From: a virus
UHGV virus genome: UHGV-0085994
Length of the DNA stretch: 27,750 nucleotides
Direction: 5' to 3' (one strand)
The notes beneath the pieces are model-generated. The model worked only from the letters and a program-made list of their open reading frames with translations, did not search any database and had not been told where the DNA came from. The translations under genes and the position numbers were made by a program. Below are positions 1-20,391 of the stretch, piece after piece (positions within the stretch are counted from its first letter, which is position 1; each line of letters opens with the position of its first letter).

Positions 1-53
1 TCATCGGGCATTATCTGAACATAAAACACTATCAATAAGTTGGAGTCATTACC
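1..53 (+). mobile_element. IS1 right-terminal fragment (last 53 bp of IS1; body of element lies outside the window)
   Basis: Positions 1-53 read TCATCGGGCATTATCTGAACATAAAACACTATCAATAAGTTGGAGTCATTACC, which I recognise as the 3' end of IS1 including the terminal inverted repeat; exact reverse complement is present at the other end of the window. Confidence 0.8.
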
Positions 54-324
54 AACTGATTGAAAGGGCATTGTTTACCTTACCCAGGAGTTCGCCAAAT
101 TCCCCCATCACTCTAGTAAGCCCGCGCCGCGCTTCCTCCTCCGTTGCATTCATCACAAAATGTTCAGCACTCCGCATGCTTTTAACGGGGAACGCAACAG
201 ATATCGAGTCGATATCAGGCATCCTATCGCTCAACTTTACGGTGACAATGACAGATGGCGACAGAATATTAGTGCTTACAGACAGCACTACATATTTTCC
301 GTCGATGTTGAAATCCTTTCTCAT
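49..324 (-). CDS. hypothetical protein immediately downstream of cre, C-terminally truncated by IS1 (stop codon lies inside the IS1 terminus); position corresponds to the cra/ref side of P1
   Basis: 91-aa ORF, ATG at 322-324, preceded by a C1-operator-like site at 341-357; reading frame runs into IS1 sequence at 49-53. Confidence 0.4.
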   Translation of the reverse strand: MRKDFNIDGKYVVLSVSTNILSPSVIVTVKLSDRMPDIDSISVAFPVKSMRSAEHFVMNATEEEARRGLTRVMGEFGELLGKVNNALSISW

Positions 325-340
325 ATGCCACCATAAATAT

Positions 341-357
341 CAAAAAATTAGAGCAAT
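341..357 (-). promoter_or_regulatory. C1 repressor operator-like site (13/17 match to ATTGCTCTAATAAATTT)
   Basis: Minus strand reads ATTGCTCTAATTTTTTG between cre stop and the next ORF start. Confidence 0.45.
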
Positions 358-374
358 CATTTACGTGTTAATGG

Positions 375-1406
375 CTAATTGCCATCTTCCAGCAGGCGCA
401 CCATTGCCCCTGTTTCACTATCCAGGTTACGGATATAGTTCATGACAATATTTACGTTGGTCCAGCCACCAGCTTGCATGATCTCCGGTATTGAAACTCC
501 GGCACGGGCCATATCTCGCGCGGCTCCGACACGGGCACTGTGTCCAGACCAGGCCAGGTACCTCTGTCCAGAGTCATCCTTAGCCCCGTAAATCAATCGG
601 TGAGTTGCTTCAAAAATCCCTTCTAGGGCGCGAGTTGATAGCTGGCTGGTGGGTGATGGCGAGGCAACACCATTTTTTCTGACCCGGCAAAACAGGTAGT
701 TATTCGGATCATCAGCCACACCAGAGACAGAAATCCATCGTTCGACCAGTTTAGTTACCCCCAGGCTAAGTGCCTTCTCTACACCTGCGGTGCTAACCAG
801 CGTTTTCGTTCTGCCAATATGGATTAACATTCTCCCACCGTCAGTACGTGAGATATCTTTAACCCTGATCCTGGCAATTTCGGCTATACGTAACAGGGTG
901 TTATAAGCAATCCCCAGAAATGCCAGATTACGTATATCCTGGCAGCGATCGCTATTTTCCATGAGTGAACGAACCTGGTCGAAATCAGTGCGTTCGAACG
1001 CTAGTGCCTGTTTTGCACGTTCACCGGCATCAACGTTTTCTTTTCGGATCCGCCGCATAACCAGTGAAACAGCATTGCTATCACTTGGTCGCTGCAGCCC
1101 GGACCGACGATGAAGCATGTTTAGCTGGCCCAAATGTTGCTGGATAGTTTTTACTGCCAGACCGCGCGCCTGAAGATATAGAAGATAATCGCGAACATCT
1201 TCAGGTTCTGCGGGAAACCATTTCCGGTTATTCAACTTGCACCATGCCGCCCACGACCGGCAAACGGACAGAAGCATTTTCCAGGTATGCTCAGAAAACG
1301 CCTGGCGATCCCTGAACATGTCCATCAGGTTCTTGCGAACCTCATCACTCGTTGCATCGACCGGCAATGCAGGCAAATTTTGGTGTACGGTCAGTAAATT
1401 GGACAT
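375..1406 (-). CDS. cre: Cre site-specific tyrosine recombinase (P1 Cre, near-identical)
   Basis: 343-aa translation matches the P1 Cre sequence as I recall it, with a few substitutions (e.g. C-terminus LEDGN); loxP lies about 420 bp upstream. Confidence 0.98.
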   Translation of the reverse strand: MSNLLTVHQNLPALPVDATSDEVRKNLMDMFRDRQAFSEHTWKMLLSVCRSWAAWCKLNNRKWFPAEPEDVRDYLLYLQARGLAVKTIQQHLGQLNMLHRRSGLQRPSDSNAVSLVMRRIRKENVDAGERAKQALAFERTDFDQVRSLMENSDRCQDIRNLAFLGIAYNTLLRIAEIARIRVKDISRTDGGRMLIHIGRTKTLVSTAGVEKALSLGVTKLVERWISVSGVADDPNNYLFCRVRKNGVASPSPTSQLSTRALEGIFEATHRLIYGAKDDSGQRYLAWSGHSARVGAARDMARAGVSIPEIMQAGGWTNVNIVMNYIRNLDSETGAMVRLLEDGN

Positions 1407-1413
1407 TTGACAC

Positions 1414-1635
1414 TCAGATAATGGTTTTAAGTAAAGTGTACAGGATCGGCTCTGCCTTTACCTGTTTATGGTTCTCGTCATAGAAACGCCAACGACCGCG
1501 ACTGCGTTCTATCTTTTCTTCACCGCGCGATAATGACAGTTGACAACTATCACGATCAAACCCTTTTGCCCGCCAGTAACCACGATTTTTCTCAAGCTCA
1601 AGATGAGTGGACACTTTAGCAGCTGAATATCCCAT
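1414..1635 (-). CDS. small hypothetical ORF between loxP and cre (73 aa); may be non-coding cre leader
   Basis: ORF with strong Shine-Dalgarno (AGAGGTGA, then ATG); ends 8 bp before cre start; no recognisable domain. Confidence 0.25.
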   Translation of the reverse strand: MGYSAAKVSTHLELEKNRGYWRAKGFDRDSCQLSLSRGEEKIERSRGRWRFYDENHKQVKAEPILYTLLKTII

Positions 1636-1730
1636 TTTTCACCTCTGATTGATTGGTGGTGCTAAGTGCGCTACGCGAAATCTGGAGCATTAACACTGCC
1701 AACATTTCGCAGATTTTACGTAGCGCAACC

Positions 1731-1754
1731 TTGATCAAATGATCAAGTGATCAC
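1731..1754. promoter_or_regulatory. cluster of three Dam (GATC) sites as TGATCA hexamers at 8-bp spacing in the cre upstream region
   Basis: TGATCA at 1732-1737, 1740-1745, 1748-1753, plus another at 1801-1806; P1 cre promoters are known to be Dam-methylation sensitive. Confidence 0.5.
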
Positions 1755-1824
1755 TATTTGACCTGATAAGGTATTGAACTGTATGGATTTACAGCTAAAT
1801 TGATCATGTTCAATAACCCTTAAT

Positions 1825-1858
1825 ATAACTTCGTATAATGTATGCTATACGAAGTTAT
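1825..1858 (+). other. loxP recombination site (34 bp: 13-bp inverted repeats flanking 8-bp spacer ATGTATGC)
   Basis: Exact ATAACTTCGTATAATGTATGCTATACGAAGTTAT. Confidence 0.98.
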
Positions 1859-1901
1859 TAGGTCTGAAGAGGAGTTTACGTCCAGCTGCGCATAAAAATC
1901 A

Positions 1902-1918
1902 AGAATTATTAGAGCAAT
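1902..1918 (-). promoter_or_regulatory. C1 operator (Op99-type), 15/17 match
   Basis: Plus strand AGAATTATTAGAGCAAT = reverse complement of the operator consensus. Confidence 0.6.
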
Positions 1919-1984
1919 AAATTTTGAGAGAAAAATCCCATTCCACCAGCCAAAAACTGGATTGTTTTTCATAGTTGTTTGACA

Positions 1985-2001
1985 ATTGCTCTAATAAATT
2001 A
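1985..2001 (+). promoter_or_regulatory. C1 operator (Op99-type), 16/17 match
   Basis: ATTGCTCTAATAAATTA. Confidence 0.7.
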
Positions 2002-2239
2002 TAGTTTTGCCGCCGTTACGTAATACGACTTTGGATTCACTATTTAATGTGTCTTCAGCGTTGTAGAGCGGCTCAGAAGGAAATGAGCAAACAGGGAAAC
2101 CTTATACAACGGCATTACAGCTATGCATTGCTCATCTTACACACAGCGCAATGTTGTTAGATTACCCCAGCATGGATCATGGGTGAAACAGTAGGTCAGA
2201 GCTTCAGGCTCTGTGTTGTCAATACAGTGAGGCATAATT

Positions 2240-2438
2240 ATGGCTTTCATTCAACCAACCATCGACGACGTTAGACATTGCTCTAACGCTTTATCTGTAG
2301 ACCCTGCCGAAACCGACGCTGCCCGCGCCATTGCTGAACACTACTCAAAGATATCCAAGCATCACCCAAGACGACCTGGATGACCTCACTGACACAATCG
2401 AATATCTCATGGCAACTAACCAGTTGGACTCACAATAA
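2240..2438 (+). CDS. coi-like small ORF (C1 inactivator position) upstream of c1; apparent frameshift (47-codon frame 2240-2383, protein-like continuation in +1 frame to TAA at 2436-2438)
   Basis: ATG at 2240 with GAGG Shine-Dalgarno; location between the operator cluster and c1 matches P1 coi; combined length about 66-70 aa versus 69 aa for P1 Coi. Confidence 0.35.
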
Positions 2439-2454
2439 ATGCACTAATAAATCT
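2438..2454 (+). promoter_or_regulatory. C1 operator-like site upstream of c1 (14/17)
   Basis: AATGCACTAATAAATCT about 95 bp upstream of the c1 start. Confidence 0.4.
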
Positions 2455-2548
2455 ATTATTTTTGTTTGATCCCTCTATAATATAGGTCAGTAATGACCGG
2501 TTTTCTCAGCCGGGCGTTATTGACCATGTCAATTCTGGAGGAGGATCA

Positions 2549-3400
2549 ATGATAAATTATGTCTACGGCGAACAACTGTACCAGGAGTTCGTCAGCTTCA
2601 GGGATCTCTTTCTAAAAAAAGCTGTTGCACGCGCCCAACACGTTGATACAGCCAGCGACGGTCGTCCTGTACGCCCGGTTGTCGTTCTACCGTTCAAAGA
2701 AACTGACAGCATTCAGGCTGAAATTGATAAATGGACTTTAATGGCGCGGGAACTGGAACAGTACCCAGACCTCAATATCCCAAAGACTATTTTATATCCA
2801 GTGCCTAACATCCTTCGCGGTGTGCGCAAGGTTACAACTTATCAGACAGAAGCTGTGAACAGCGTCAATATGACCGCTGGCCGTATTATTCATCTGATTG
2901 ATAAGGACATTCGCATCCAAAAAAGCGCGGGGATCAATGAGCACAGTGCGAAATACATAGAGAACCTGGAAGCAACAAAAGAGCTAATGAGGCAGTACCC
3001 GGAGGATGAAAAATTCCGTATGCGTGTACACGGCTTTAGCGAAACAATGCTGCGCGTCCACTACATCTCCAGTAGCCCTAACTACAATGATGGTAAATCA
3101 GTTAGTTACCATGTACCGCTGTGTGGCGTGTTTATCTGCGATGAAACTCTCCGTGATGGAATCATCATCAACGGTGAATTCGAGAAAGCAAAATTTAGCC
3201 TTTATGACTCTATAGAACCGATCATCTGCGACCGCTGGCCGCAGGCAAAAATATATCGCCTGGCAGATATTGAAAATGTAAAAAAACAAATTGCCATCAC
3301 TCGCGAAGAGAAAAAGGTTAAGTCAGCCGCATCAGTTACGCGCAGCCGTAAAACCAAGAAGGGGCAGCCAGTAAACGACAACCCCGAAAGCGCGCAATAA
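2549..3400 (+). CDS. c1: C1 repressor of lysogeny (P1 immC)
   Basis: 283 aa, the length of P1 C1; N-terminus MINYVYGEQLYQEF; preceded by GGAGGA Shine-Dalgarno and an operator cluster; cognate 17-bp operators occur throughout the window. Confidence 0.9.
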   Translation: MINYVYGEQLYQEFVSFRDLFLKKAVARAQHVDTASDGRPVRPVVVLPFKETDSIQAEIDKWTLMARELEQYPDLNIPKTILYPVPNILRGVRKVTTYQTEAVNSVNMTAGRIIHLIDKDIRIQKSAGINEHSAKYIENLEATKELMRQYPEDEKFRMRVHGFSETMLRVHYISSSPNYNDGKSVSYHVPLCGVFICDETLRDGIIINGEFEKAKFSLYDSIEPIICDRWPQAKIYRLADIENVKKQIAITREEKKVKSAASVTRSRKTKKGQPVNDNPESAQ

Positions 3401-3404
3401 ATTA

Positions 3405-3424
3405 TGCCCGGCATCAACCGGGCA
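3405..3424. terminator. bidirectional stem-loop between convergent c1 and ant
   Basis: TGCCCGG-CATCAA-CCGGGCA hairpin flanked by A/T-rich sequence. Confidence 0.45.
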
Positions 3425-3432
3425 TTCTTCCA

Positions 3433-4548
3433 TTATTCAGCCGCCACCGGTTTTAACAAGCCAGCATCGAGCAGTTTACGCGTCAACCACTGCTGGCCTT
3501 TACCCGTTAATTGAGGCGTCAACCGTATCTGGTAGCCATCTTCATCATCCAGCACCACTTCTTTCACCGTGAAATACCCCGCGTTGATGTACTGCTGGAA
3601 CGGCACATTTTTACGTCCACCGGACGCTATCAGGATGCCGTTCTCCCGTAACCAGGCAAACAGCGCGTTTTGCTTAAGTCCAACAACCTTTGCAAAATTC
3701 CCAATCAGGATCCCTTTAGCTACTGATACCCGGTCGGCAAAATCGACTTTAGGAGCGGCGGCCACCAGCTGCTGATTTAGCTGGTGGGCTTTCTGTTCCA
3801 GAAGCTGCTTTTGTTCAGCCAGTTCGGCAGCCAGGCGCAGAGCTTCTGGAAGCGTCTGGGGGATTGCAACCGGTTGCTGTTCTTTTTGTCGGAAGTAGCT
3901 GTCTTCCAGTTTTTCAAAGAATGCCCATGCCTGATCGGTTTCGATCATTTTAGCGTGGCGGGCTGCGCCGCGTTCCGTCCAGAGGATGAGTGAGCGGGCT
4001 TTAGGAGAGATAGGATTTTGTGAGTTACTTAAAGTCACTCGCAAATTGTTCAAATCATCTCCAATAACTTTATAGAAATGCTTGCCTTCACAAAAACGTT
4101 CAGCATTACGGGAAAAGTTCTTCTTGATGTTATCCGCATCTGTCCCATACCCCTTAGCAAGGATCTTAGTTGTCACTACACGCACTCCCAGCCATTCCAG
4201 AACGGGAATTTCATCAGACTGATTCTGAACAACCACCAGCTCCGATTCCTGAACTGAAGGTGCATGAGTTTTTTCTGATTTAACGTTAGTTGCTTTCATT
4301 CTGTGTGCCTCCTTGCGTGTTTCGGCTGCGACGGTTGCGTAATTCAGATGCCCCTGTTCGAGCAGGTATTCGCGGATATCAGACAACAGAATGCGGTGAA
4401 CAGCGTTCTTGTCCTTTCTCCGGTAAAGTTGTTTGGTGATCATGAAGTAGTTGGCAATAACGCCCGGTATATCCCTGGTACTGATACAGGATGTGTGCTG
4501 TTCAATTGCCTCAATCATTTCTTCACGGGTGACTAATGACGTTCTCAT
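3433..4548 (-). CDS. ant: antirepressor Ant (Bro-N/KilA-N-like N-terminal region, KilAC/ANT-like C-terminal domain)
   Basis: 371 aa; translationally coupled to the upstream 73-aa ORF (4-bp overlap); sits downstream of a c4-like antisense arrangement, as in the P1 immI operon. Confidence 0.65.
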   Translation of the reverse strand: MRTSLVTREEMIEAIEQHTSCISTRDIPGVIANYFMITKQLYRRKDKNAVHRILLSDIREYLLEQGHLNYATVAAETRKEAHRMKATNVKSEKTHAPSVQESELVVVQNQSDEIPVLEWLGVRVVTTKILAKGYGTDADNIKKNFSRNAERFCEGKHFYKVIGDDLNNLRVTLSNSQNPISPKARSLILWTERGAARHAKMIETDQAWAFFEKLEDSYFRQKEQQPVAIPQTLPEALRLAAELAEQKQLLEQKAHQLNQQLVAAAPKVDFADRVSVAKGILIGNFAKVVGLKQNALFAWLRENGILIASGGRKNVPFQQYINAGYFTVKEVVLDDEDGYQIRLTPQLTGKGQQWLTRKLLDAGLLKPVAAE

Positions 4549-4766
4549 AGTCCCTCCTGAGCAGAAGCGTTAACAGGGAGGCACCAGTAACTGAGAGAGT
4601 TGCGCGAATCAGTGGAAAAGCGGGCAGAGAAAATGCAGGGAGCGTCAGGAAGCTGAGAACGGGCCTCATCTTCTGTCGGTGCAATAACGAAGTGATAGTG
4701 ACGTTTCTGGCAGGAATAGAAGCGCCAGATGAATTCAGGATGAGTTGGGGTAGGGACAGTAGCCAT
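4545..4766 (-). CDS. icd: Icd-like small protein (immI operon leader gene)
   Basis: 73-aa ORF overlapping ant start; Shine-Dalgarno AAGGAGG coincides with a sequence complementary to the upstream antisense element. Confidence 0.5.
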   Translation of the reverse strand: MATVPTPTHPEFIWRFYSCQKRHYHFVIAPTEDEARSQLPDAPCIFSARFSTDSRNSLSYWCLPVNASAQEGL

Positions 4767-4799
4767 AATGGCAGCCTCCTTTGACTAAGTTAAGGAGCT

Positions 4800-4890
4800 A
4801 CCGCGTGAGGTCTCAATCTCAATGGCGGTAGCACTGACTGGGTTGAGACTACCGGCGTCAAAGGGAACCGGCCTGCCTTTCGGCAGCCCA
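4800..4890 (-). ncRNA. c4: c4-type antisense RNA (candidate), with loops complementary to the icd leader
   Basis: Minus-strand elements GUCUCAA (4843-4849) and CCUUUGAC (4857-4864) lie in two predicted hairpin loops and are complementary to UUGAGA(C) repeats (4810-4823) and GUCAAAGGAGG (4776-4786, icd RBS); same-sense copies lie upstream at 5000-5006 and 4981-4988, giving the a1/b1 - a'/b' - a2/b2 layout described for P1 c4. Boundaries are approximate. Confidence 0.4.
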
Positions 4891-4950
4891 GCCAGCACTA
4901 CCATTGATTTCGGAGCTAAACGCTACGTATGGCTGTGCGATGGCATGACA

Positions 4951-4975
4951 CAAAAAAAGACGCTTTCGGCGTCTG
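4951..4975 (-). terminator. rho-independent terminator (minus strand) downstream of pacB
   Basis: AGACGC-loop-GCGTCT hairpin followed by U7 on the minus strand. Confidence 0.5.
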
Positions 4976-5105
4976 TGTCGCCTTTGACATTATCCGGGGT
5001 CTCAATCCCGGCACCCGTTTTAATGAGGTGCCTGATAAGCATAAACCGAAAATGCCTCAAGGCGCAAGAGGTCAGGTTCAATGTAACATCGGTAGTTAAA
5101 AAACA

Positions 5106-5122
5106 CAATTTATTAGAGCAAA
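5106..5122 (-). promoter_or_regulatory. C1 operator (Op51-like, upstream of c4/icd/ant), 15/17
   Basis: Plus strand CAATTTATTAGAGCAAA. Confidence 0.6.
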
Positions 5123-5125
5123 TAT

Positions 5126-6610
5126 TCATTCATTAAGCCATGCCAGAGCTTCATCAACCTGCGCTTCGTCTTCGACGCTAAGCACTTCATCCTGGGGAAC
5201 ATAATCCGCCAGCATAGCGAAACAATATGTATCCCAATGGTCTGGTGAGTGCAGGTTGAGTTTTTTCTTCATATCCTCCTTACTCATCACCTTCCATTGA
5301 CCTGCGGAGTTAATCCCTACAGGGATTTTCGACGCTTCCTCAATAGTTTCATTACCCTTATCCAGTCTCATACGACCAGATTTTACGGCCTCTGCGGCTT
5401 GAACGTTGGCATAAGCACGTTTATCAAAGTACAGGCTCTTATCTTCACGGCTATGCATCTTTTTACCCCAGCGTATACGCTGTACGGTAATACCATAATA
5501 CTCGTACATCAGATCCGCCGTTGCTTTACCCAGGCCATCGCCGTCTATCGCTATGGTGATATTTGGGAATCGCTCAGGATTACATTCTGCGAAAATTTTG
5601 GCGGCAAGCTGCGTTTCTGTAACGTCTGTGTATTCCAGCATTCGATAGTTGATTACACGGCGTTTATTTCGCTGGCCGGACACCATCATGATATTGATAA
5701 CGGACTTATCCCGTCCCGTACCACCAGCAACGTCCACACATGCAAGCCAGCCCCATCCTTTGGCAATCTTGACTTTCCGCCGCGTCGCACGTTCAACCTC
5801 ATCACGTCCAAGAAGGAAGCCATCCTGTGATTTAGGGAATAGTCCGCGTACCTTAATCATGTACATAGGGTTATCACGCCCGCCGTACTCCGCCAGCTTC
5901 ATTTTGATAAATGCTGGCGTTACCAGCGGTGATTCCTCACTGTTAAGCGTGATCGCCGTATAAACGCCATCAGGGTTACCAGGACGCTTGGCCAGTTTAT
6001 GGTGAGTATCGTAGAAATAGCCGCTTGGGCGTGTAGGCTGTGACAGTAATAAGATGCGGTTATCCTGTCCGGTAAGAGCACCAGTGATGATACCGAAAGC
6101 TCTATCACTGACACCGGAGGCTTCATCGATAATATACAGAAGATGATCTGCGTGTTCACCGGCGAGAGCTTCTTCACTTCCCAGACGAAAGCCCTTCGGT
6201 ACTACAGTCCATACACCTTTACCAGTAACCTCATATAAAGCGGTTTCTGTCAGAACAAAATAATCAGCAAGCCATGGAAAACGGCTGGTGGCAGTAGCCC
6301 AGTTTATCTTGATGTACTTGAATATACCGGTCATTACCTGCTGAATTTTGTTCGCAACGATAATGGCACGGGCACCGGGATACATGATTATGAACAACAT
6401 GATCATGATAGAAGTCATGTCTGATTTCCCGGTACCGTGGCCAGACGAAACAGATGTCTTGCTACCCTGTTCCTGCACAGACTCAATAATCAGATCCTGC
6501 TGCCAGGTAGGTGTTTTGCCGAACAAAACATCAGCGGCCGCAATCCAGTCATAACGATATAGCGCCACCAGCTCGCGCCAACGTGGATCCGTTACGCAAC
6601 TTCTGGCCAT
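5126..6610 (-). CDS. pacB: terminase large subunit (PacB-like)
   Basis: 494 aa, the length of P1 PacB as I recall it; Walker A-like SGHGTGKS; directly downstream of the small-terminase-like ORF. Confidence 0.8.
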
Positions 6611-7278
6611 TAATCATCATCCCCGTATAGCTTGCGGGTAACTTCTTCGTCTTCCTCCTCGTCTTCGTCCAGGTCTTGTTCCAGCCATGGGTCGTTTGAT
6701 ACACCTTCAGTATCAACATCTCCATAACCGCCTGTATCAACGATATCGGCGATTTCTTCCCTACGCTGCTCAATCCACAATGCGGCATCGGCGCGGCGGT
6801 TGGCGGCCCGTTCTCGCGCGATTTTATCCAGATCTTCAAGTGATGGAGCGCCAGATGCTGTTTGGTTTTCCTCATCATCGGTATTGGTCTTAGGAGCACG
6901 CAGATCGGCTTTGATTTGCTCCAGCATCAGGGGCGGCACTTTCCCGCCATGCGCCTCGATGAATTCAGCTGCTTCCAGCACTGACCAGTTATTTTCACGC
7001 TTTCGTTCGTATGCCAGCTTAACAATGCCAGCTTGCCCCATAGACAAAGCGTGCTTTTCCGCCTCCCGGCTTTCTTTTCGATAGTTATTCCGGATGCTGT
7101 AAATGGTGTTGATCAGGCTGCTTATCTGCGCGGAACAGCTGTTTAGCATGCTCGCGATACGGTATTCAGGCGGAGTACCTTCATCATCGTCTTTTTGCTG
7201 ATCGCGCATTTCCTGCACCAGGCGAATACACGTAAACATCGCGCTTATCGACATCCAGATGCGGGTATTCCTTTTCAA
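6610..7278 (-). CDS. terminase small subunit-like (PacA-like), downstream frame; acidic C-terminal tail
   Basis: 222-aa ORF overlapping the upstream 73-aa ORF in a different frame; C-terminus DEDEEEDEE typical of small terminase; stop overlaps pacB start. Confidence 0.45.
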
Positions 7279-7405
7279 GGATTGCTGCGAGTTCTTTCGC
7301 TGATAGAAGAGATTTAGTGCGGATCATGTAATCCGCAATCTCGTACGATGTTATTCGTGAGTGATTTATTTCCATGAAGTGGCGTCCCTGCCAGTTAAGT
7401 AACAT
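7184..7405 (-). CDS. terminase small subunit-like, upstream frame (probable N-terminal part of a split pacA-like gene)
   Basis: 73-aa ORF with an HTH-like segment; overlaps 6610..7278 by 95 nt in another frame; C1 operator-like site just upstream. Confidence 0.35.
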
Positions 7406-7475
7406 CCTGTCACCTACTGATTAGCCCATGTCAACTAATCAACGTGGAATATAATACCCTCGATTAAAGAAATAG

Positions 7476-7492
7476 CAATACATTAGAGCAAT
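7476..7492 (-). promoter_or_regulatory. C1 operator-like site upstream of the pacA-like gene (14/17)
   Basis: Plus strand CAATACATTAGAGCAAT. Confidence 0.4.
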
Positions 7493-7493
7493 T

Positions 7494-8537
7494 TTATCTA
7501 ACACTCGACGAGTAACTTGTGATAGCGCCGACTCCAAGCGCGTAATCAAAGAACAATCGTTGATGCATCGCCAGCCTACCGTGCGTCTTCTCCCAATTAT
7601 CGCGGTCACGCTCAATATCACGCTGGCATGACTGGCACAGAGGAATTGCGTAAATGTCATGCGCGCATAATCGACTATGACGAACGATATAAGGCGTAAT
7701 GTAAGCGCCAGCTCCCGCCGCTCCACACCCACAGCATGGACGGGAAGCAACAAAGTCCATGTACTCAGGTAATTTTAGCGATTGCAGTTTTGGTATTTTG
7801 AAATGCGCCATGCCAGGGTCGGAGTCAACATCCACAGGGCATACTTTTGCACGCATCGGCGCGGCGCGTTCTTCCATCATCTGAACATATGCTGTAGCGC
7901 GATCGTCATACGGGCGAATATCCGCCTCTTTCAGAGGTCCGCTATCCTGCGTTGCGGCTTTCATCTTATTTATTGATATACGGCAAACTTCTTCCGGCAT
8001 CAGGTGCATCATGTTGCGCATGAAAGCCCACCAGCACAGTTCTTGAATACTTAAATCATGGCCATCTGAAAGCCCCATTTCCTGACGGGCGACATCCAGT
8101 ATCCAGTTAACGCGATTATTATGCAGCGTTTCTTTCAGCTCATTAAAACCACGCATCCGGTAATGGTTATCGTGATGCCAGCACAACAACACCGCGCTAT
8201 TGTCTCGTTCTGCGTGGACAATATGGTTGTCACACCAGCTACGATCTGCGGCCTGGCATTGCCCCTCTTTCCTGCGCAACCACGCCACCAGCGCGTCAAT
8301 TCCACCAATACGGCGAAACAGTTCATCGCTGTTAAAAAACGGCTGCAACGCCTCATTTGTTGCCATAGTTTGCTCGGAAACAACGAGGCCGTCGTCCATG
8401 TGCTCGATTAACTCACGCGGCACCGGCTCCATAATAAATTTACGGCCAGCCTCCACCAGCTTTCTGACTTCCTGATCCACTTTAAATGTGGCGACGCCAA
8501 GCTCTTTTTGTACAAAGGGAGTAATTACGGCTTTCAC
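7494..8537 (-). CDS. hypothetical Cys/His-rich protein (possible HNH-like or zinc-binding nuclease next to terminase)
   Basis: 347 aa; motifs CWHHDNH and CCGCG...HSRLCAHD...CQSCQ; no domain confidently recognised. Confidence 0.55.
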
Positions 8538-8564
8538 ATCACACCTTTCATCACTGATTGGGCT

Positions 8565-8765
8565 TTATCTGCTGCCCGGCATTCTCTGTTTAAGCACAAC
8601 CATTTCCTGACGGCATAACACAGCAATAGCGGTCCTGGCACCAATTTGCTTACCAACCAGGTATTGCTTTACCTCGCGGCGACTCACGCCATCAAGAAGC
8701 ATCTTTAACGCTTCACGGGACAACTTGTTGTATTTACGTGCCATTAATCTACTCCGCGGAACCAT
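8565..8765 (-). CDS. small protein with possible LuxR/GerE-like helix-turn-helix (66 aa)
   Basis: [32 protein letters not shown] pattern; overlaps doc 3' end by 17 nt. Confidence 0.35.
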
Positions 8766-9129
8766 ACAATCTACGTAACGTGTCGGCGACAGAAGATACA
8801 GATATCTCTCCGGTCGCAGCCCCTACGGTAAGGTCTGCCAGTTCTGGTGAATCAAATACCTGCACCCCGTTACGGCGTAGAAATAGCAGCGCACTGTTTA
8901 GCGCGGTACGCTTATTGGCATCATTGAATATATGCCCTCTCGCAGTAGCCACCAGGTAGGTGGCGGAGACTTCGAAAAGGTCGGTGATATCTTCGTAGGC
9001 AACTCTGGCCTGAACTCTCCCGATAATGGCCTCTGCCCTACCCGGATCTGACATTCCCGGCAGGCCGCCGTAGCGGCTTATATTCGCATCATGAAGCGCA
9101 ATAAGTTCTTCCGGTGATATATGCCTCAT
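8749..9129 (-). CDS. doc: Doc toxin (Fic-fold kinase, death on curing)
   Basis: 126 aa; near-identical to P1 Doc as recalled; Fic motif HIFNDANKR. Confidence 0.95.
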
Positions 9130-9350
9130 TATCGGTTAACCAGTTCCTTGTTGGTGGAGTCCAGAGTGTCAAACAGGGATGCAAATTCAGCATCCAGCGC
9201 CGCTTTTTTGTAGGCTTCGAAAGTAGCCTTGCTGACAATTACTGCTGGCTCACGGCCTCTGCGGGTGATTTCAACCTCTTCCCCGGCCTCAACATTGTTG
9301 AGCACTTCAGAAAGGTTGCCGCGCGCGGTACGGAAGTTAATGGATTGCAT
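9129..9350 (-). CDS. phd: Phd antitoxin (prevents host death)
   Basis: 73 aa from the internal Met ([13 protein letters not shown]...), matching P1 Phd; the ORF track starts two codons earlier. Confidence 0.95.
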
Positions 9351-9355
9351 AAACA

Positions 9356-9385
9356 CCTCGTGTACTCGTTATGTGTACACAATTA
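9356..9385 (-). promoter_or_regulatory. phd-doc promoter/operator region with GTGTAC palindromes
   Basis: GTGTAC at 9360-9365 and GTGTACAC at 9373-9380 just upstream of phd; Phd/Doc autoregulate via palindromic sites. Confidence 0.45.
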
Positions 9386-9422
9386 TAAACTTCACAGGCA
9401 TAAAGCACCAGCACTTTGCAGC

Positions 9423-9812
9423 TTAAATCACCGGACAATCATCAAATTCCCCACTTCGGGCATCATTAATGACATGAGTGATCACACCAAACACAGCATT
9501 ACTGCCCGTGCATCCATCGTCATCTACTGGTAACGCCTCTTTCTTCCCGGTGCTTAAATCCTCCAGATGCTGACGTGGATACTTCCGGTATCTTTTTACG
9601 CGATATTCCCCATCCAGAGCGCATACAAGCAGAGAACCATCAACCGGGGTAAGTGAGGAATCAACCACCAGCAATGCACCCTGTAATATTCCCTCACGAT
9701 GATGACTATCAGCTGCCCTCATGAAGTAGGTCGCTGAAGGATGTCTAATTATCTGCTGATCAAGAGAAATACGGCTCTCAGCATAATCCGCCGCAGGAGA
9801 AGGGAAGCCCAT
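9423..9812 (-). CDS. humD: HumD (UmuD'-like SOS mutagenesis protein homolog)
   Basis: 129 aa, UmuD C-terminal-domain-like; LexA box immediately upstream. Confidence 0.8.
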   Translation of the reverse strand: MGFPSPAADYAESRISLDQQIIRHPSATYFMRAADSHHREGILQGALLVVDSSLTPVDGSLLVCALDGEYRVKRYRKYPRQHLEDLSTGKKEALPVDDDGCTGSNAVFGVITHVINDARSGEFDDCPVI

Positions 9813-9830
9813 AGCGTTTTCACCTCAGAG

Positions 9831-9850
9831 TACTGTTTATCCATACAGTA
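9831..9850. promoter_or_regulatory. LexA box (SOS box) upstream of humD
   Basis: TACTGTTTATCCATACAGTA = CTGT-N8-ACAG, 19 bp upstream of the humD start codon. Confidence 0.65.
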
Positions 9851-9910
9851 TACATTAAAGATGCTTGAAGTGTGCAATAGCGCGATGCTTTGCGCTCGCC
9901 TGGTGGCGCG

Positions 9911-10162
9911 TTATTTTTTGGCTATATCTTCTTTCTGATATACCGGATCGTTTCCTTTTGGCAGCAGGAGGCTTAACTGCCGGTAGTGCCGTAGCCGTTC
10001 CATGAAATAGGTGCGCAGGTTCTCAGGTTGCTCACGGGCTACCTGTTCCGCTATGACGGGTATGTTCAATCGCTCTTTGTAGGCAACCCCCCTGGCAGCC
10101 AGGTCAACGTTAACTTTATTCCTTTCTTCCTGGCTTTTAGCTGCTATGTTCCAGTTGCTCAT
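9911..10162 (-). CDS. hot: Hot, homolog of DNA polymerase III theta subunit (HolE)
   Basis: 83 aa; [35 protein letters not shown] aligns with E. coli theta. Confidence 0.8.
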
Positions 10163-10164
10163 GT

Positions 10165-10380
10165 TTAAGGCTCACATTTCCAGATGGTATTCTGAACACC
10201 CGAACCGGGCGTAAGATGAGGGTTAGCGTTCGCACTATGCTGATATACAGCTTTGGACTTTCCATATTGCTGACAGGCTTTGTCTGCGGTTTTTTGCAGG
10301 CTGTCCAGCCCATACCAGCCATCTGACTGGATGCTAACATTTTCGCCGTCATTGTATTGCACCATCGCACACCCAGACAT
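10165..10380 (-). CDS. small hypothetical protein, possibly a lipoprotein with an unannotated start
   Basis: 71-aa ORF; in-frame upstream codons encode a hydrophobic signal-like stretch ending ILAMSGC but no ATG/GTG/TTG start before the stop. Confidence 0.3.
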
Positions 10381-10513
10381 AGCTAAAATCGCACCGACAA
10401 TACCGCTTTTCCAAAAAGCTCTAATTAGGTCATTCGTTGCCTAATGTCCGAACTGCTAAAGCATCCAAGTTGCTGTAGAATCACCGCCAATTACATAAGC
10501 CTGAAATAAGTGG

Positions 10514-12076
10514 ATGAAAATGACAAGTATTCAACAACGTGCAGAGCTTCATCGTCAAATCTGGCAAATTGCTAACGATGTCAGGGGTTCGGTCGATGGA
10601 TGGGATTTTAAGCAATACGTTCTGGGCGCACTTTTCTACCGTTTTATCAGCGAAAATTTTTCCAGCTATATTGAAGCCGGTGATGACAGTATCTGTTATG
10701 CGAAACTGGATGACAGCGTAATTACTGATGACATTAAAGACGATGCCATCAAAACCAAAGGTTACTTCATCTACCCAAGTCAGCTTTTCTGCAACGTAGC
10801 TGCGAAAGCAAATACCAATGACAGACTGAATGCAGATTTAAACAGTATCTTCGTTGCTATCGAAAGTTCTGCTTACGGTTATCCTTCAGAAGCTGACATC
10901 AAAGGTTTGTTTGCTGATTTCGATACCACCAGTAACCGCCTGGGTAACACCGTTAAAGATAAAAATGCCCGCCTGGCTGCGGTTCTGAAAGGGGTTGAAG
11001 GGTTAAAACTTGGTGACTTCAACGAACATCAGATTGACCTGTTCGGTGATGCCTATGAGTTCCTGATTTCTAACTATGCGGCAAATGCCGGTAAGTCAGG
11101 CGGTGAGTTCTTTACACCGCAGCACGTCTCCAAGCTGATTGCACAACTGGCTATGCACGGGCAGACCAGCGTTAACAAAATCTACGACCCGGCAGCGGGT
11201 TCCGGCTCACTGTTGTTGCAGGCGAAAAAACAGTTTGATAACCACATCATCGAAGAAGGCTTTTTCGGTCAGGAAATCAACCATACGACCTATAACCTGG
11301 CGCGTATGAACATGTTTTTGCACAACATCAACTACGACAAGTTTGATATCAAGCTGGGCAATACGCTGACTGAACCGCACTTCAGAGATGAAAAACCGTT
11401 TGATGCCATCGTTTCTAACCCGCCGTATTCGGTGAAATGGATTGGCAGCGATGACCCGACGCTGATTAACGATGAGCGTTTTGCCCCGGCTGGCGTTCTG
11501 GCCCCCAAATCCAAAGCTGACTTTGCGTTTGTATTACATGCGCTGAACTATCTTTCGGCCAAAGGTCGTGCTGCGATTGTCTGCTTCCCGGGTATTTTTT
11601 ACCGTGGCGGCGCAGAGCAGAAAATCCGTCAGTATCTGGTCGATAATAACTATGTCGAAACCGTAATTTCACTGGCTCCGAACCTGTTCTTTGGCACCAC
11701 CATTGCCGTAAACATTCTGGTTCTGTCCAAACATAAAACGGATACCAACGTTCAGTTTATTGATGCCAGCGAACTGTTCAAAAAAGAGACCAACAACAAT
11801 ATCCTGACCGATGCCCATATCGAACAAATTATGCAGGTATTCACCAGCAAGGAAGATGTTGCTCATCTGGCAAAATCTGTCGCGTTTGAAGCCGTTGTAG
11901 CGAATGACTATAACCTGTCGGTGAGCAGCTATGTAGAATCGAAAGATAACCGCGAAATTATCGATATTGCTGAGCTGAATGCGGAACTGAAAACCACGGT
12001 CAGCAAAATCGACCAGTTGCGCAAAGATATTGATGCGATTGTGGCTGAAATTGAAGGCTGCGAGGTACAGAAATGA
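10514..12076 (+). CDS. hsdM: type I restriction-modification system, DNA methyltransferase subunit HsdM (type IC, EcoR124-like)
   Basis: 520 aa; N6-adenine methyltransferase motif NPPY(SVKW); followed by hsdS with 4-bp overlap. Confidence 0.95.
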
Positions 12077-13221
12077 GCGAGTTGAGTTATCTGGAAAAAT
12101 TGCTGGATGGAGTTAAGGTTGAGTGGAAAACACTAGAGAAAGTGCTTAAACGAACTAAAGGCACAAAAATAACCGCTGGGCAGATGAAAGCTCTTCACAA
12201 AGATAATGCGCCGCTTAAAATTTTTGCAGGGGGAAAAACAGTAGCCTTTGTTGACTTTAAAGATATTCCAGAGAAAGATATTAATAGAGAGCCATCGATC
12301 ATTGTTAAATCCAGAGGTATTATCGAATTCGAGTATTACGATAAACCATTCTCTCACAAAAATGAGATGTGGTCATATCACTCAAATAATGATGCGATAA
12401 GCATAAAGTATATTTATTACTTCCTAAAAATAAATGAAGGATATTTCCAGAAAATTGGGGGTAAAATGCAAATGCCACAAATTGCAACTCCTGATACAGA
12501 TAAGTTTGAAGTTCCAATCCCTTGCCCGGATAATCCGGAAAAATCCCTTGCCATCCAGTCTGAAATCGTTCGGATTCTGGATAAATTTACTGCAGTTACC
12601 GCTGAGCTTACCGCTGAGCTTAACATGCGTAAAAAACAGTACAACTACTATCGCGACCAGTTACTGAATCTTGAGGGCAGGGAAAATACTCGAGAAATGA
12701 GGATAGGTGATATTTATGATTTTCAGTATGGAACAGGCAATACAATTCCTAAATCTGGAGGGCAATATCCTGTTTATGGTAGCAACGGGATTGTAGGCTC
12801 CCATGACAAATATAACAGCGAAGACTCGCCTGTTATTGGTCATATAGGTGCTTACGCAGGAATCGTTAACTGGGGCCAAGGTAAGCATTTTGTTACATAC
12901 AACGGAGTTATTTGTAGGCACAAATCGAAGGAAGTTCTTCAAAAATACGCCTACTATTTATTACTTTTACAAGATTTCGGTTCAAAATCTAATAGTGCAT
13001 CACAGCCTTTTGTTTCATATAACATATTAAATGCTCCTATTGTTTTGGTTCCCCCTTTACAAGAGCAAGCTCGTATCGTCGCAATACTCGATAAATTCGA
13101 CACACTGACCAACTCCATCACCGAAGGTCTCCCGCGTGAAATCGAGTTGCGCCAGAAACAATACGAGTACTATCGTGATTTACTGTTCAGTTTCCCAAAA
13201 CCTGAAACAGCCAGTAATTAA
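12073..13221 (+). CDS. hsdS: type I R-M specificity subunit HsdS (two target-recognition domains; central TAELTAEL repeat)
   Basis: 382 aa; conserved repeats LDKF..(Q/K)QYxYYRD after each TRD; central TAEL x2 as in EcoR124I-type subunits. Confidence 0.95.
12598..12621 (+). repeat. 12-bp tandem direct repeat ACCGCTGAGCTT x2 encoding TAEL-TAEL in hsdS
   Basis: Directly visible; in the EcoR124 family the copy number of this repeat sets the spacer length of the recognition sequence. Confidence 0.75.
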
Positions 13222-13342
13222 TTGAGCATTTTTACAGACCGGACCACCTTAACATCCGGTCAGTATATAGACTATTTTCTACACGACGGAAGTCGCCCTT
13301 AACTCCCTTCCGGCCCTTGCCAGACGGCACAAAGGATGCGCT

Positions 13343-16300
13343 ATGACTCATCAAACACACACCATTGCTGAATCCAATAACTTTATCGTCCTTGATAAGT
13401 ACATCAAAGCTGAGCAAACAAGCGACAGCTACCAGAGCGAATCGGACCTGGAACGTGAACTGATTCAGGACCTGCGGAATCAGGGCTATGAATTTATATC
13501 CGTAAAATCACAGTCGGCGATGCTAGCCAATGTTCGGGAACAGCTTCAGAACCTCAATGGTGTGGTGTTTAATGACAGCGAGTGGCGGCGTTTCACGGAG
13601 CAGTATCTGGATAACCCGAGCGATGGCATTCTGGATAAGACCCGTAAAATCCATATCGACTATATTTGCGACTTTATTTTTGATGACGAGCGTCTTGAGA
13701 ACATCTATTTGATAGATAAAAAGAATCTCATGCGCAATAAGGTGCAGATTATCCAGCAGTTTGAACAGACGGGTTCTCATGCTAACCGTTATGACGTCAC
13801 GATCCTGGTTAATGGTTTACCGCTGGTGCAAATCGAACTAAAAAAACGCGGGGTGGCGATTCGTGAGGCTTTCAACCAGATACATCGTTACAGTAAAGAG
13901 AGTTTTAACAGCGAAAATTCCCTGTTTAAGTATCTGCAGCTGTTCGTCATTTCCAACGGCACTGATACCCGTTATTTTGCCAACACCACAAAGCGCGATA
14001 AAAACAGTTTTGACTTCACCATGAACTGGGCTAAATCAGACAATACACTGATTAAAGACCTCAAAGACTTTACCGCTACCTTTTTCCAGAAACATACTCT
14101 GCTTAATGTTCTGGTGAACTACAGCGTTTTTGACAGCAGTCAGACACTACTGGTAATGCGACCGTACCAGATTGCCGCCACCGAGCGCATTCTGTGGAAA
14201 ATTAAGAGTTCCTTTACAGCGAAGAACTGGTCAAAACCGGAAAGCGGTGGGTATATCTGGCACACTACCGGTTCTGGTAAAACCCTCACCAGCTTTAAAG
14301 CCGCGCGTCTGGCAACAGAGCTGGACTTTATTGATAAAGTCTTCTTTGTGGTCGACAGGAAAGACCTCGATTACCAGACCATGAAGGAATATCAGCGTTT
14401 TTCGCCAGACAGCGTCAACGGCTCGGAAAATACCGCAGGTCTTAAACGAAATCTGGATAAGGACGATAACAAAATTATCGTCACTACTATTCAGAAACTC
14501 AATAACCTGATGAAAGCAGAAAGCGATCTGCCTGTATATAATCAGCAAGTGGTGTTTATATTTGATGAATGCCACCGCAGCCAGTTTGGAGAAGCGCAGA
14601 AAAACCTGAAGAAGAAATTCAAACGCTATTATCAGTTTGGTTTTACCGGCACCCCTATTTTCCCGGAAAACGCCTTAGGCTCAGAAACAACCGCCAGCGT
14701 ATTTGGTCGTGAATTGCATTCGTATGTAATTACCGATGCGATTCGTGACGAAAAAGTGCTCAAATTCAAGGTGGACTACAACGATGTGCGGCCACAGTTT
14801 AAGTCTTTAGAGACAGAAACTGACGAGAAAAAACTGAGTGCGGCTGAAAATCAGCAGGCGTTTCTTCATCCCATGCGTATTCAGGAAATCACGCAATATA
14901 TTCTGAATAATTTCCGCCAGAAAACCCACCGTACCTTCCCTGGCTCAAAAGGTTTTAATGCTATGTTGGCAGTGAGCAGCGTGGATGCCGCGAAAGCCTA
15001 TTATGCGACGTTTAAACGGTTACAAGAAGAAGCCGCTAATAAATCGGCTACCTATAAACCGCTGCGTATTGCGACAATCTTCTCCTTTGCCGCCAATGAA
15101 GAACAAAATGCCATTGGTGAAATTTCCGATGAAACTTTTGATACCAGCGCAATGGACAGCAGTGCTAAAGAGTTTCTGGACGCTGCAATTCGTGAATATA
15201 ACAGCCATTTTAAAACTAACTTTAGCACCGACAGTAACGGTTTTCAGAACTACTATCGTGATTTAGCCCAGCGGGTTAAAAATCAGGATATCGATCTGCT
15301 AATTGTCGTGGGGATGTTTTTAACCGGCTTCGATGCTCCAACATTAAACACGCTATTCGTCGATAAAAACTTGCGTTTTCACGGCCTGATGCAGGCATTC
15401 TCCCGCACCAACCGCATTTATGACGCGACTAAAACCTTCGGTAATATTGTCACGTTCCGGGATCTGGAACGCTCAACCATTGATGCCATAACGCTGTTTG
15501 GTGACAAAAATACCAAAAATGTGGTTTTAGAAAAGAGTTATGCAGAGTATATGGAAGGCTTTACTGATGCTGCCACTGGTGAAGCTAAACGCGGCTTCAT
15601 GACAGTAGTTTCAGAACTGGAACAACGGTTCCCTGACCCTACCAGTATTGAAAGTGAAAAAGAGAAGAAAGACTTCGTTAAACTGTTTGGCGAATACCTG
15701 CGTGCCGAGAACATCCTGCAAAACTATGATGAATTTGCCACGCTAAAAGCCCTGCAACAAATCGATCTTAGCGATCCTGTTGCGGTAGAAAAATTCAAAG
15801 CAGAACATTATGTGGATAATGAAAAGTTCGCTGAATTGCAAACAATTCGTCTCCCTGCTGATCGCAAGATTCAGGATTATCGTTCTGCCTATAACGATAT
15901 TCGCGACTGGCAGCGCCGTGAGAAAGAAGCTGAGAAAAAAGAGAAATCAACCACTGACTGGGATGACGTAGTTTTTGAGGTCGATTTGCTGAAGTCTCAG
16001 GAAATAAACCTGGATTATATCCTTGGACTGATTTTCGAACACAATAGACAAAATAAAGGCAAGGGCGAAATGATCGAAGAGGTCAAACGCTTAATTCGTT
16101 CAAGCCTGGGGAACCGGGCGAAAGAGGGCCTGGTGGTCGATTTTATTCAGCAAACGAACCTGGATGATTTACCAGACAAAGCCAGTATCATTGAGGCATT
16201 CTTTACGTTTGCTCAACGCGAACAGCAACGTGAAGCAGAAGCATTGATAAAAGAAGAAAATCTCAATGAAGATGCAGCAAAACGCTATATTCGCACGTCT

Positions 16301-16459
16301 TTAAAACGCGAATACGCCACCGAAAATGGCACAGAATTAAACGAAACATTACCAAAACTTAGTCCGTTGAATCCGCAATATAAAACGAAAAAACAGGCAG
16401 TTTTCCAGAAAATCGTCTCGTTTATTGAGAAGTTTAAAGGCGTAGGCGGAAAAATATAG
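13343..16459 (+). CDS. hsdR: type I R-M restriction endonuclease/translocase subunit HsdR
   Basis: 1038 aa; helicase motif I TGSGKT and DECH box; gene order M-S-R typical of type IC. Confidence 0.95.
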
Positions 16460-16538
16460 CCCAATTCGTATTTTTCTTGCGGGTTCTTAATTAAACCCGC
16501 AAGAGACCGTGGGGTTCCAAATGGCTAATATACTCCCC

Positions 16539-16625
16539 TTACCCATGCGCGACAATGCTGCCAAAAGTGATAGAGAACAGCCAGAAATAGATCGCGGCCA
16601 TAATGATTTTGAATGCCGTGTTCAT
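16539..16625 (-). CDS. 28-aa hydrophobic peptide (MNTAFKIIMAAIYFWLFSITFGSIVAHG), candidate small membrane protein or type I toxin-like peptide
   Basis: ATG with AGGAG Shine-Dalgarno at 7-nt spacing; single predicted transmembrane helix; C1 operator about 85 bp upstream; below the ORF-track length cutoff. Confidence 0.4.
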   Translation of the reverse strand: MNTAFKIIMAAIYFWLFSITFGSIVAHG

Positions 16626-16653
16626 ATTTTCAGCTCCTGTGATTGATTGGATA

Positions 16654-16684
16654 CATGCCGCGCCTTGCGGCATGTTTTTATTTT
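16654..16684 (+). terminator. rho-independent terminator (plus strand), likely end of the hsdR transcript
   Basis: CATGCCGC-loop-GCGGCATG hairpin followed by TTTTTATTTT. Confidence 0.5.
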
Positions 16685-16707
16685 CACTTTCTCTGTTTTA
16701 AAAATCA

Positions 16708-16724
16708 AGATTTATTAGAGCAAT
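16708..16724 (-). promoter_or_regulatory. C1 operator, 16/17 match
   Basis: Plus strand AGATTTATTAGAGCAAT; lies between the HAD-like gene stop and the small peptide gene. Confidence 0.65.
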
Positions 16725-17230: not shown

Positions 17231-17302
17231 ATGCCCTCCTCATTGGACGAAAAAAATGCTGGTGGGAGCACTCCACCAGCATTAAAAGTGACACTGTAAC
17301 TA

Positions 17303-20257: not shown

Positions 20258-20391
20258 TCTTTAAGAGTCATCTGCGGAATACCTCCCATTTTCCCGCATG
20301 AAACAACGTCAATCTGTTCACGCGCAGACTGGAATAACAAAGGCAGGTGACTTAGATTTTTTGGCGTGCCGCCGGAGTGAACGCGTGGTTC

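Follow-up and report, generated by a model that had tools for sequence, protein, structure and literature searches.

A 936-bp deletion joining lpa to pacA very probably marks a P1-like phage-plasmid that has become a plain plasmid

What are the two overlapping open reading frames (ORFs) that stand between pdcB and pacB in the virus genome UHGV-0085994? We analysed a 27,750-nucleotide stretch of this genome (hereafter the window), which by nucleotide identity and synteny belongs to a P1-like Punavirus phage-plasmid of the RCS47/SJ46 type. An earlier note on this DNA had pointed out the ORFs, one of 73 amino acids (aa) and one of 222 aa with an acidic tail, both of which exist in the ORF list as described, and had read them as a single pacA-like small terminase broken by a frameshift. 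Our analysis gives a different answer: the region is very probably the scar of a 936-bp deletion that joined lpa codon 57/58 to pacA codon 190 via a TA dinucleotide, in an element that is now a plain plasmid. The two ORFs overlap and carry junk tails because lpa and pacA lie in different frames. The element was judged from the 27.7 kb window, the remainder lying beyond it. The features of the locus, in window coordinates, are as follows.

5126-6610, minus strand: pacB, intact, 494 aa, 98.8% identical in nucleotides to RCS47
6610-7278, minus strand: pacA remnant, ORF of 222 aa with a TTG start and an acidic tail (ORF list; BLAST to P1 and RCS47 pacA)
7184-7405, minus strand: lpa remnant, ORF of 73 aa (Pfam; position of the P1 lpa start)
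7233-7234, no strand: deletion junction (BLAST against loci L001-L004, and alignment)
7478-7451, minus strand: promoter Plpa, TTGCTA-16-TATTAT (promoter scan; transferred from the P1 annotation, L001 3408-3449)
7476-7492, minus strand: C1 operator Olpa (P1 annotation, transferred via the BLAST offset)
7494-8537, minus strand: pdcB (DUF968), intact, 347 aa (Pfam PF06147, 167 bits; synteny with P1 and RCS47)

The reference loci included P1 (L001), RCS47 (L002) and an Escherichia fergusonii plasmid with an intact lpa-pacA region (L003). By megablast, window 6400-8000 matched 21 phage records at 95-99% identity, among them P1, P7, RCS47, SJ46 and JL22, and 711 plasmid records; the flanks are 98.6% identical to RCS47 and 96.5% to P1. 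The order pdcB-lpa-pacA-pacB is the same as in P1 (NC_005856 nt 89991-93206). However, 936 bp that are absent from the window are kept by all 16 full-length phage relatives and by the 540 plasmid records that cover most of the query. In each record covering both flanks, the 1601-base query was matched as two pieces spread over 2537 bases; in P1 and P7, 1521 matched query bases were spread over 2457. The two-ORF layout, which the earlier note had proposed to look for in functional phages, occurs in 0 of the 16 phage records covering both flanks. Alignment with P1 pacA, also proposed there, placed the breakpoint at window 7233/7234: the left homology stops at 7234 and the right homology begins at 7233, so that the sole overlap is a TA dinucleotide found in both parental sequences, with no homopolymer. 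The window reads ...GGCGAATACACGTA/AACATCGCG... across the junction, and the P1 counterparts read ...CACGTA/TCCCTGG on the left and ...GCAGATA/AACATCG on the right. The lost interval, which RCS47 also has, corresponds to about 90162-91097 in P1 (NC_005856), or 2256-3191 in P1 locus coordinates. According to the P1 annotation, the following were lost with it.

lpa (P1 89991-90443): codons 58-150
P1 90475-90493: the late promoter LPpac, in the lpa-pacA spacer
pacA (P1 90529-91722): codons 1-189
P1 90784-90796: the IHF site
P1 90804-90813: four mapped pac cleavage positions

In the relatives, the matched stretch is annotated as pacB, pacA, lpa and pdcB; in the window, the 73-aa ORF is all that is left between pdcB and the C-terminal part of PacA. 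No relocated copy of the deleted segment was found anywhere in the window. The earlier note had suspected an internal deletion in pacA that removed pac. A deletion did take pac, but it begins in lpa, at codon 58, and reaches pacA codon 190, so that it is not internal to pacA. The shortfall of about 100 codons that had been estimated for the combined ORFs is a coincidence, the number of PacA codons actually missing being 189.

The 73-aa ORF opens with the start codon annotated for lpa in P1 and consists of Lpa residues 1-57 (window 7235-7405) followed by 16 out-of-frame residues from pacA DNA and a stop. It matches PF25716 (BPP1_LPA) at 70.3 bits over profile positions 1-45 of 131, whereas intact Lpa scores 193 bits over positions 1-130; a full-length Lpa, with the whole profile, the complete winged-helix domain and the C-terminal helix, is thus not encoded. 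AlphaFold2 models Lpa (mean pLDDT 74, rising to about 90 for residues 21-90) as a winged helix with helices at residues 20-30, 36-46 and 54-66, wing strands at 70-75 and 82-88, and a long C-terminal helix. The top Foldseek matches in the PDB were MarR/MepR, Fur/PerR and forkhead winged helices; despite weak E-values (0.01-0.1), their fold class is consistent with the model. The cut at residue 57 falls within helix 3, the recognition helix of the winged helix-turn-helix (HTH), so in the model the C-terminal two thirds of the protein are gone, including most of the recognition helix and the wing. Since these are removed, the 73-aa fragment should neither bind DNA nor activate transcription. We also considered that the fragment might be a retained DNA-binding domain, with a dominant-negative or superinfection-exclusion role, and that deletions end here at a domain boundary; this idea was rejected because the cut lies inside the modelled domain (helix 54-66, wing 70-88). 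The control region at 7451-7492 is intact, its promoter and operator being the same as in P1 and RCS47, and the remnant is therefore probably still transcribed upon derepression. Its upstream neighbour pdcB stands on the undisturbed side of the deletion.

The 222-aa ORF consists of PacA residues 190-397 (6613-7233, stop codon 6610-6612) behind 14 junk codons, which are lpa-derived DNA in another frame and include the TTG start. An ATG at 7239, among lpa bases read in another frame, opens a 209-aa product (MFTCIRLV...), the one that gene callers report. The 73-aa and 222-aa ORFs, both on the minus strand, overlap by 95 nt. A full-length PacA of about 397 aa, colinear with that of P1 and including the N-terminal region, is not present; the C-terminus of PacA, like pacB, is shared with P1 and RCS47. 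The HTH-like N-terminus that the earlier note had assigned to the terminase belongs to Lpa, and the weak HTH_23 match of intact RCS47 PacA (residues 10-44, Pfam) lies in the deleted part. Neither the 222-aa ORF nor PacB had a Pfam match. pacB is left without its late promoter LPpac, and PpacB, predicted by the P1 annotators inside the 3' end of pacA, maps to window 6721-6749. Within the 3' part of pacA, window 6820-6866 matches P1 exactly and differs at about 14 positions from RCS47 and from a second contig with the same junction (L006, described below); this patch points to recombination among P1-like lineages inside the remnant gene. A pacA locus in two pieces is also annotated in Escherichia phage vB_EcoM-673R5 (ON470615.2, 511-1702) as Pac1 (148 aa) and Pac2 (199 aa). 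That locus is 2 nt shorter than its relatives, which indicates a frameshift or sequencing error, and it keeps pac and all pacA sequence, so that its arrangement differs from that of the window.

The pac site of P1 is 161 bp long, lies within pacA and has seven hexamers that can be methylated by Dam (PMC10028697). We looked for it as TGATCA/G hexamers in groups of four and three, on the two sides of an IHF site and of the cleavage points (PMC10028697; P1 annotation). The window has no such site, the hexamer cluster, IHF site and cleavage sites having been deleted. In the loci of P1 and RCS47 alike, seven TGATCR hexamers are packed into 170 bp and an eighth stands nearby, all of them inside the lost interval; in the P1 locus the pac hexamers occupy 2445-2626. 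Only two isolated hexamers, at background density, are left in 6610-7800:

7110-7115, no strand: TGATCR hexamer, P1 locus position 2131
7199-7204, no strand: TGATCR hexamer, P1 locus position 2220

Both lie outside pac in P1 too and are not a pac site. The earlier statement that pac hexamers are absent from 6610-7800 thus stands for a pac-type cluster and fails for these two. Over the whole window, TGATCR gave 41 strand matches against 33 +/- 7 expected, and the best cluster, of four, lies beside loxP (1732-1806). It consists of TGATCA hexamers at 1732, 1740 and 1748 (8-bp spacing) and at 1801, adjoins an exact loxP at 1825-1858 and is the sole cluster of its kind in the window. Though similar to half of a pac site, it belongs to the cre-lox control region.

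The junction was not confined to the window. An exact-protein look-up in ENA and Logan found the 73-aa fusion protein on seven contigs. Among these, ENA ERZ909642, a human gut metagenome contig of 27,894 bp, is 100% identical to window 1-17405; Logan SRR31599358 (contig SRR31599358_116, L006) is 98.3% identical to the window, with a different gene order; and ENA ERZ1742652 carries it on a 638-bp contig. The identical junction string was verified in all three. In L006 (junction at 4229-4260), c1 directly adjoins pacB, there is no ant module and no hsd gene nearby, and other genes occupy the place of the type I restriction-modification (R-M) system of the window. Three or more independent assemblies, with two backbones between them, thus share the junction, and no repeats stand at the breakpoints, which makes an artefact of assembly very unlikely. 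In addition, the finished plasmids L008, L009 and L017 have analogous clean deletions. Between the window and L006, each flank has 9-14 differing positions, and for each of the two there are other elements at least as close. The shared junction may therefore go back to two separate events, or recombination may have spread it.

What would this deletion do to the element? Lpa activates the late promoters of P1 in concert with host SspA. The genes lpa, pacA, pacB and sit are essential in P1 (efficiency of plating < 1.2e-7), and Lpa acts at 11 P1 late promoters (PMC10695390). Since lpa, pacA and pacB are essential, the element is predicted to be lytic-dead, beyond a packaging defect, with late transcription, PacA, pac and the LPpac-driven expression of pacB all lost. 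Once repression is lifted, the lpa promoter under C1 control would fire but would yield a 73-aa fragment unable to activate the 11 late promoters; the head, tail, lysis and terminase genes would stay silent without Lpa, and Lpa supplied by a helper would be insufficient for DNA that lacks the pac site and full PacA. The earlier suggestion of a packaging-defective element thus holds in outline and appears too narrow, as the activator of all late promoters would be destroyed as well. With lpa and pacA truncated and sit short by 84 codons, the window lacks intact copies of genes that a functional, inducible and infectious phage-plasmid would need, and the element can probably persist solely as a plasmid.

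Several explanations compete with a deletion scar in a P1-like phage-plasmid. One of them takes the locus as one small-terminase gene, split by a frameshift or an error of sequencing, whose N-terminus is the 73-aa ORF; this would fit two overlapping ORFs in different frames, and an HTH is present in the parent protein of the upstream ORF. This parent, however, is Lpa by Pfam and by position, the 73-aa ORF does not align to PacA residues 1-73, and 936 bp are missing rather than 1-2 bp. With a clean 2-nt TA joint, no homopolymer and the same junction in independent assemblies, such an error, which the earlier note had raised, can be set aside almost completely. A collapsed or mis-joined lpa-pacA interval, the real molecule being intact, is suggested by the match of the window to a short-read metagenome contig and by the absence of the junction from all complete plasmid and genome collections searched. 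It is nevertheless highly improbable: the three assemblies with this junction differ in sample and pipeline (ENA, Logan), one has it on a different backbone at 98.3% identity, the breakpoints offer no misleading repeats and overlap by just 2 nt, and the finished plasmids L008, L009 and L017 have their end points nearby.

The locus could also belong to a functional natural variant whose small terminase is shorter, whose pac is another one or has moved, and whose late control does without full-length Lpa. pacB is intact, the 209-aa ATG-initiated ORF for the PacA C-terminus exists, and the allele persists in more than one sample. Yet no phage record has the arrangement, and flanks that are 97-99% identical to those of elements with the full interval speak for a recent loss and not for a diverged design. 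Besides the known Dam cluster by loxP there is no alternative hexamer cluster in the window, Lpa is cut within the modelled recognition helix and sit is broken too, all of which leaves this variant very little room. Finally, pac-disabled P1 lysogens are made for phagemid packaging (PMC10028697), and the element could be such an engineered helper with pac deliberately removed for phagemid delivery. In the pacA*::npt P1 lysogen (Huan et al. 2023), synonymous changes disable the seven hexamers, so that the resident P1 genome is packaged poorly, while PacA and Lpa are functional and particles are made (PMC10028697). Those constructs retain lpa and pacA coding capacity and bear a marker, whereas here, although hexamers are likewise disabled, the deletion destroys lpa and pacA as well, which would abolish helper function. 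No scar or marker is present, and the backbone, which comes from gut metagenomes, is a wild RCS47-type one that carries IS26 and a type I R-M system; an engineered origin is hardly credible.

Some observations weigh against the interpretation of the locus as a deletion scar in what is now a plasmid. The support for the junction comes from assemblies, one of which (locus L005) is the same contig as the window. A 200-nt megablast did not find the junction in 647 PLSDB and 646 E. coli RefSeq flank-matching records, and exact 32-mer scans of IMG/VR, GTDB representative genomes and JGI metagenomes gave no match; the junction is a rare allele. The window and L006 are not mutual closest relatives in the flanks, so that one origin or two may be at issue. 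The loss of function is argued from P1 genetics, and a constitutive pacB promoter or an active C-terminal fragment of PacA is conceivable.

Is the end point of this deletion peculiar to the window? Truncated Lpa fusions were gathered from the fusion-protein cluster and from a search with full-length Lpa, and their tails were mapped onto the intact L003. About 22 distinct deletion alleles were found, all of which retain the lpa 5' end and lose downstream DNA including pac. Their end points on the lpa side are clearly not scattered at random, the last retained Lpa codons being as follows.

Codon 47: 2 alleles
Codon 49: 1 allele
Codon 53: 1 allele (P0003, 806 contigs)
Codon 57/58: 3 alleles, the window among them
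Codon 61/62 boundary: about 10 alleles, whose retained lpa sequence stops after CTGCGCTTA; the far end lies in the 3' end of pacA, in pacB, in icd or in ant
Codon 66: 1 allele
Codon 78: 2 alleles
Codon 101: 1 allele
Codon 126: 1 allele

The largest group, of about 10 alleles, ends at L003 9631, 10 nt from the lpa end point of the window (L003 9641). At the DNA level, lpa 9631 is joined to icd 6224 in L008 and L009 (pHI1B-o111 and pYLMB64a) and to pacA at about 8481 in L015 and L016, and lpa at about 9631 is joined to pacA 8208 in L011. In L017, lpa at about 9655 is joined to pacB 7394. L012 shares the lpa end point of the window (9641), joined there to an IS3-family fragment, and L010 shares its pacA end point (8706), joined to lpa 9581. 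The recurring end points in L003 are thus 9631, 9641 and 9655 in lpa, and 8702-8706 and 8479-8481 in pacA. The pacA site (ARDT/CIRLV) also ends the in-frame PacA deletion P0017 and the pacA-ant deletion P0067; in all, the lpa end point of the window is common to three alleles and its pacA end point to four. Like the window, the other lpa alleles (P0003 with 806 contigs, P0004 with 227 contigs, L008/L009) keep the lpa 5' end and pdcB, lose pac, and end within one 25-nt lpa hairpin with a microhomology that is mostly TA. They differ from it in that their distal ends lie in the pacA 3' end, pacB, icd and ant, and most are larger (1.4-4.6 kb); the window allele is the smallest deletion seen among the lpa alleles that still takes all of pac.

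The commonest truncated allele, P0003, consists of two deletions, one from lpa codon 53 to pacB and, 74 nt further, one from pacB to ant. It is carried at about 3430-3580 by L017 (p2017.20.01CC_2, IncHI1B), an E. coli plasmid that is 111 kb long and mobilizable and retains cre, c1, pdcB and phd-doc. Among 644 PLSDB records, 73 have a break inside the 200 nt around the lpa site, some of these being Tn1722 insertions and not deletions, as sampled by L018. In this Salmonella plasmid (pSAL4445-1, IncF; 2331-2872), the lpa fragment ends at L003 9687, an end that the record class sampled through it carries as well, and abuts sequence with the Tn1722 primer of Venturini et al., beside IS26. Since this fragment sits on an IncF plasmid, lpa fragments travel outside P1 backbones.

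The end points in lpa at codons 53, 58 and 61 belong to one hairpin, TAAGCGCGAT-GTTT-ATC(T)GCGCTTA (-9.2 kcal/mol, z = -2.2; 7 of 200 shuffles fold as well); they fall at its 5' foot, in its loop and at its 3' foot, respectively. The pacA end point is the apex of an imperfect palindrome, CCAGGGATAC-GT-GTATTCGCCTGG (z = -1.7; 13 of 200 shuffles fold as well). We tentatively consider it possible, though not the likelier case, that lpa and pacA contain fragile sites, formed by short quasi-palindromes, at which deletions recur to the nucleotide and provide a stereotyped, high-frequency route by which late-gene activation and packaging are lost and a plain plasmid results, the window joining two such sites. 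The cause could then be hairpin-induced template switching or a structure- or site-specific nuclease. Template switching associated with the hairpin, along the direction of lpa transcription, would fit the geometry; more generally, illegitimate recombination or template switching between the lpa and pacA quasi-palindromes is proposed with low confidence. If fragile sites are at work, the window allele itself may have arisen more than once, since neither of its two backbones is closer to the other than to intact relatives. Loss of lpa might be favoured, as it would remove a lethal late programme. The break lies inside a helix, away from a domain boundary, which makes it unlikely that the deletions are selected for the domain they leave behind. 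The hairpin account of the end points is weak and counts against the proposal: the stems are short and the z-scores modest.

Other sources of the recurrent end points were considered. An artefact of protein clustering at 90% was rejected, as codon 61 is the break in five separate homology-search clusters too, and DNA-level checks covered three alleles. Adjacent deletion mediated by an insertion sequence (IS) was rejected as the origin of the fixed end, as there is no IS at the junctions and the IS3-family fragment of L012 is a partner and not an anchor. Inspection of the breakpoints by eye for Chi, loxP-like, cix/hix-like, dif-like, IHF, integron core-site and IS-end motifs revealed none that was convincing.

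Beyond the locus, the backbone of the window agrees with that of P1, P7 and RCS47 in identity and synteny, the syntenic genes being cre-lox, c1, pacB, pdcB, doc-phd, humD, the pmg genes, sit and tub; the closest backbones are those of Escherichia phage RCS47 (FO818745) and Salmonella phage SJ46. Maintenance and accessory functions look intact (cre, loxP, c1, C4 RNA, icd, ant, phd-doc, humD and type I R-M). Further features of the window are the following.

1825-1858: loxP, exact
3433-4548: antirepressor ORF6N/ANT, 371 aa
4821-4908: C4 antisense RNA
4953-5031: isrK-like small RNA
8749-9356, minus strand: doc and phd
9423-9812, minus strand: humD
20389-21213, no strand: IS26 copy, 99.9% identical (BLAST against L003)

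An immI-type module (C4 RNA, isrK, icd, ant) lies between pacB and c1 in the window, RCS47 and SJ46, unlike in P1, which has nothing there; in the window it spans 3433-5031, and L003 has the same layout. A type I R-M operon (hsdM, hsdS, hsdR; 10514-16459) stands between hot and pap in place of the P1 genes lxr...pmgT-V. Part of hsdS (about 12126-13048) has no match in the closest plasmid, which suggests a different specificity subunit. The IS26 copy joins a truncated pmgP (P1 coordinate 80626) to a sit gene that lacks its last 252 nt (84 codons), in inverted orientation; the sit match begins at L003 27290 (gene 27038-30412). The element thus has a further lesion, again in a gene essential for lytic growth. 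With the two P1 segments facing opposite ways, the arrangement (20389-21213 and 21185-24352) suggests that IS26 mediated an inversion, one that would span roughly P1 41.7-80.6 kb and have its other junction beyond the window. An internal segment of sit (21667-22294) has no match in the otherwise 98% identical E. fergusonii plasmid and appears to be a mosaic or variable region of this tape-measure/transglycosylase gene.

P1-like phage-plasmids are known to become plasmids through gene loss (PMC10879196; PMC6906374), and the present case is ordinary decay of this sort, a new allele of a known kind. Decayed P1 backbones (PMC6906374) and the window alike have kept plasmid and accessory functions, lost essential lytic functions and undergone IS26 rearrangement; with one 936-bp deletion and one IS26 event in 27.7 kb, the decay of the window is at an early stage. 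In the searchable literature we found no account of a joint loss of the late activator and pac, of the deletion in the window, or of an lpa hot spot. The unexpected part is the recurrence of end points to the nucleotide in many independent alleles; the rest is ordinary decay.

These findings correct the annotation of the locus: the apparent split terminase is very probably a deletion scar, and the element a non-inducible plasmid and not a phage. This bears on the calling of prophages and phage-plasmids in metagenomes and on estimates of the spread of resistance-bearing P1-like elements. If the recurrent sites are true, the inactivation of P1-like elements would be non-random, with lpa struck repeatedly at few nucleotides, and the transition from phage to plasmid would be predictable and experimentally tractable.

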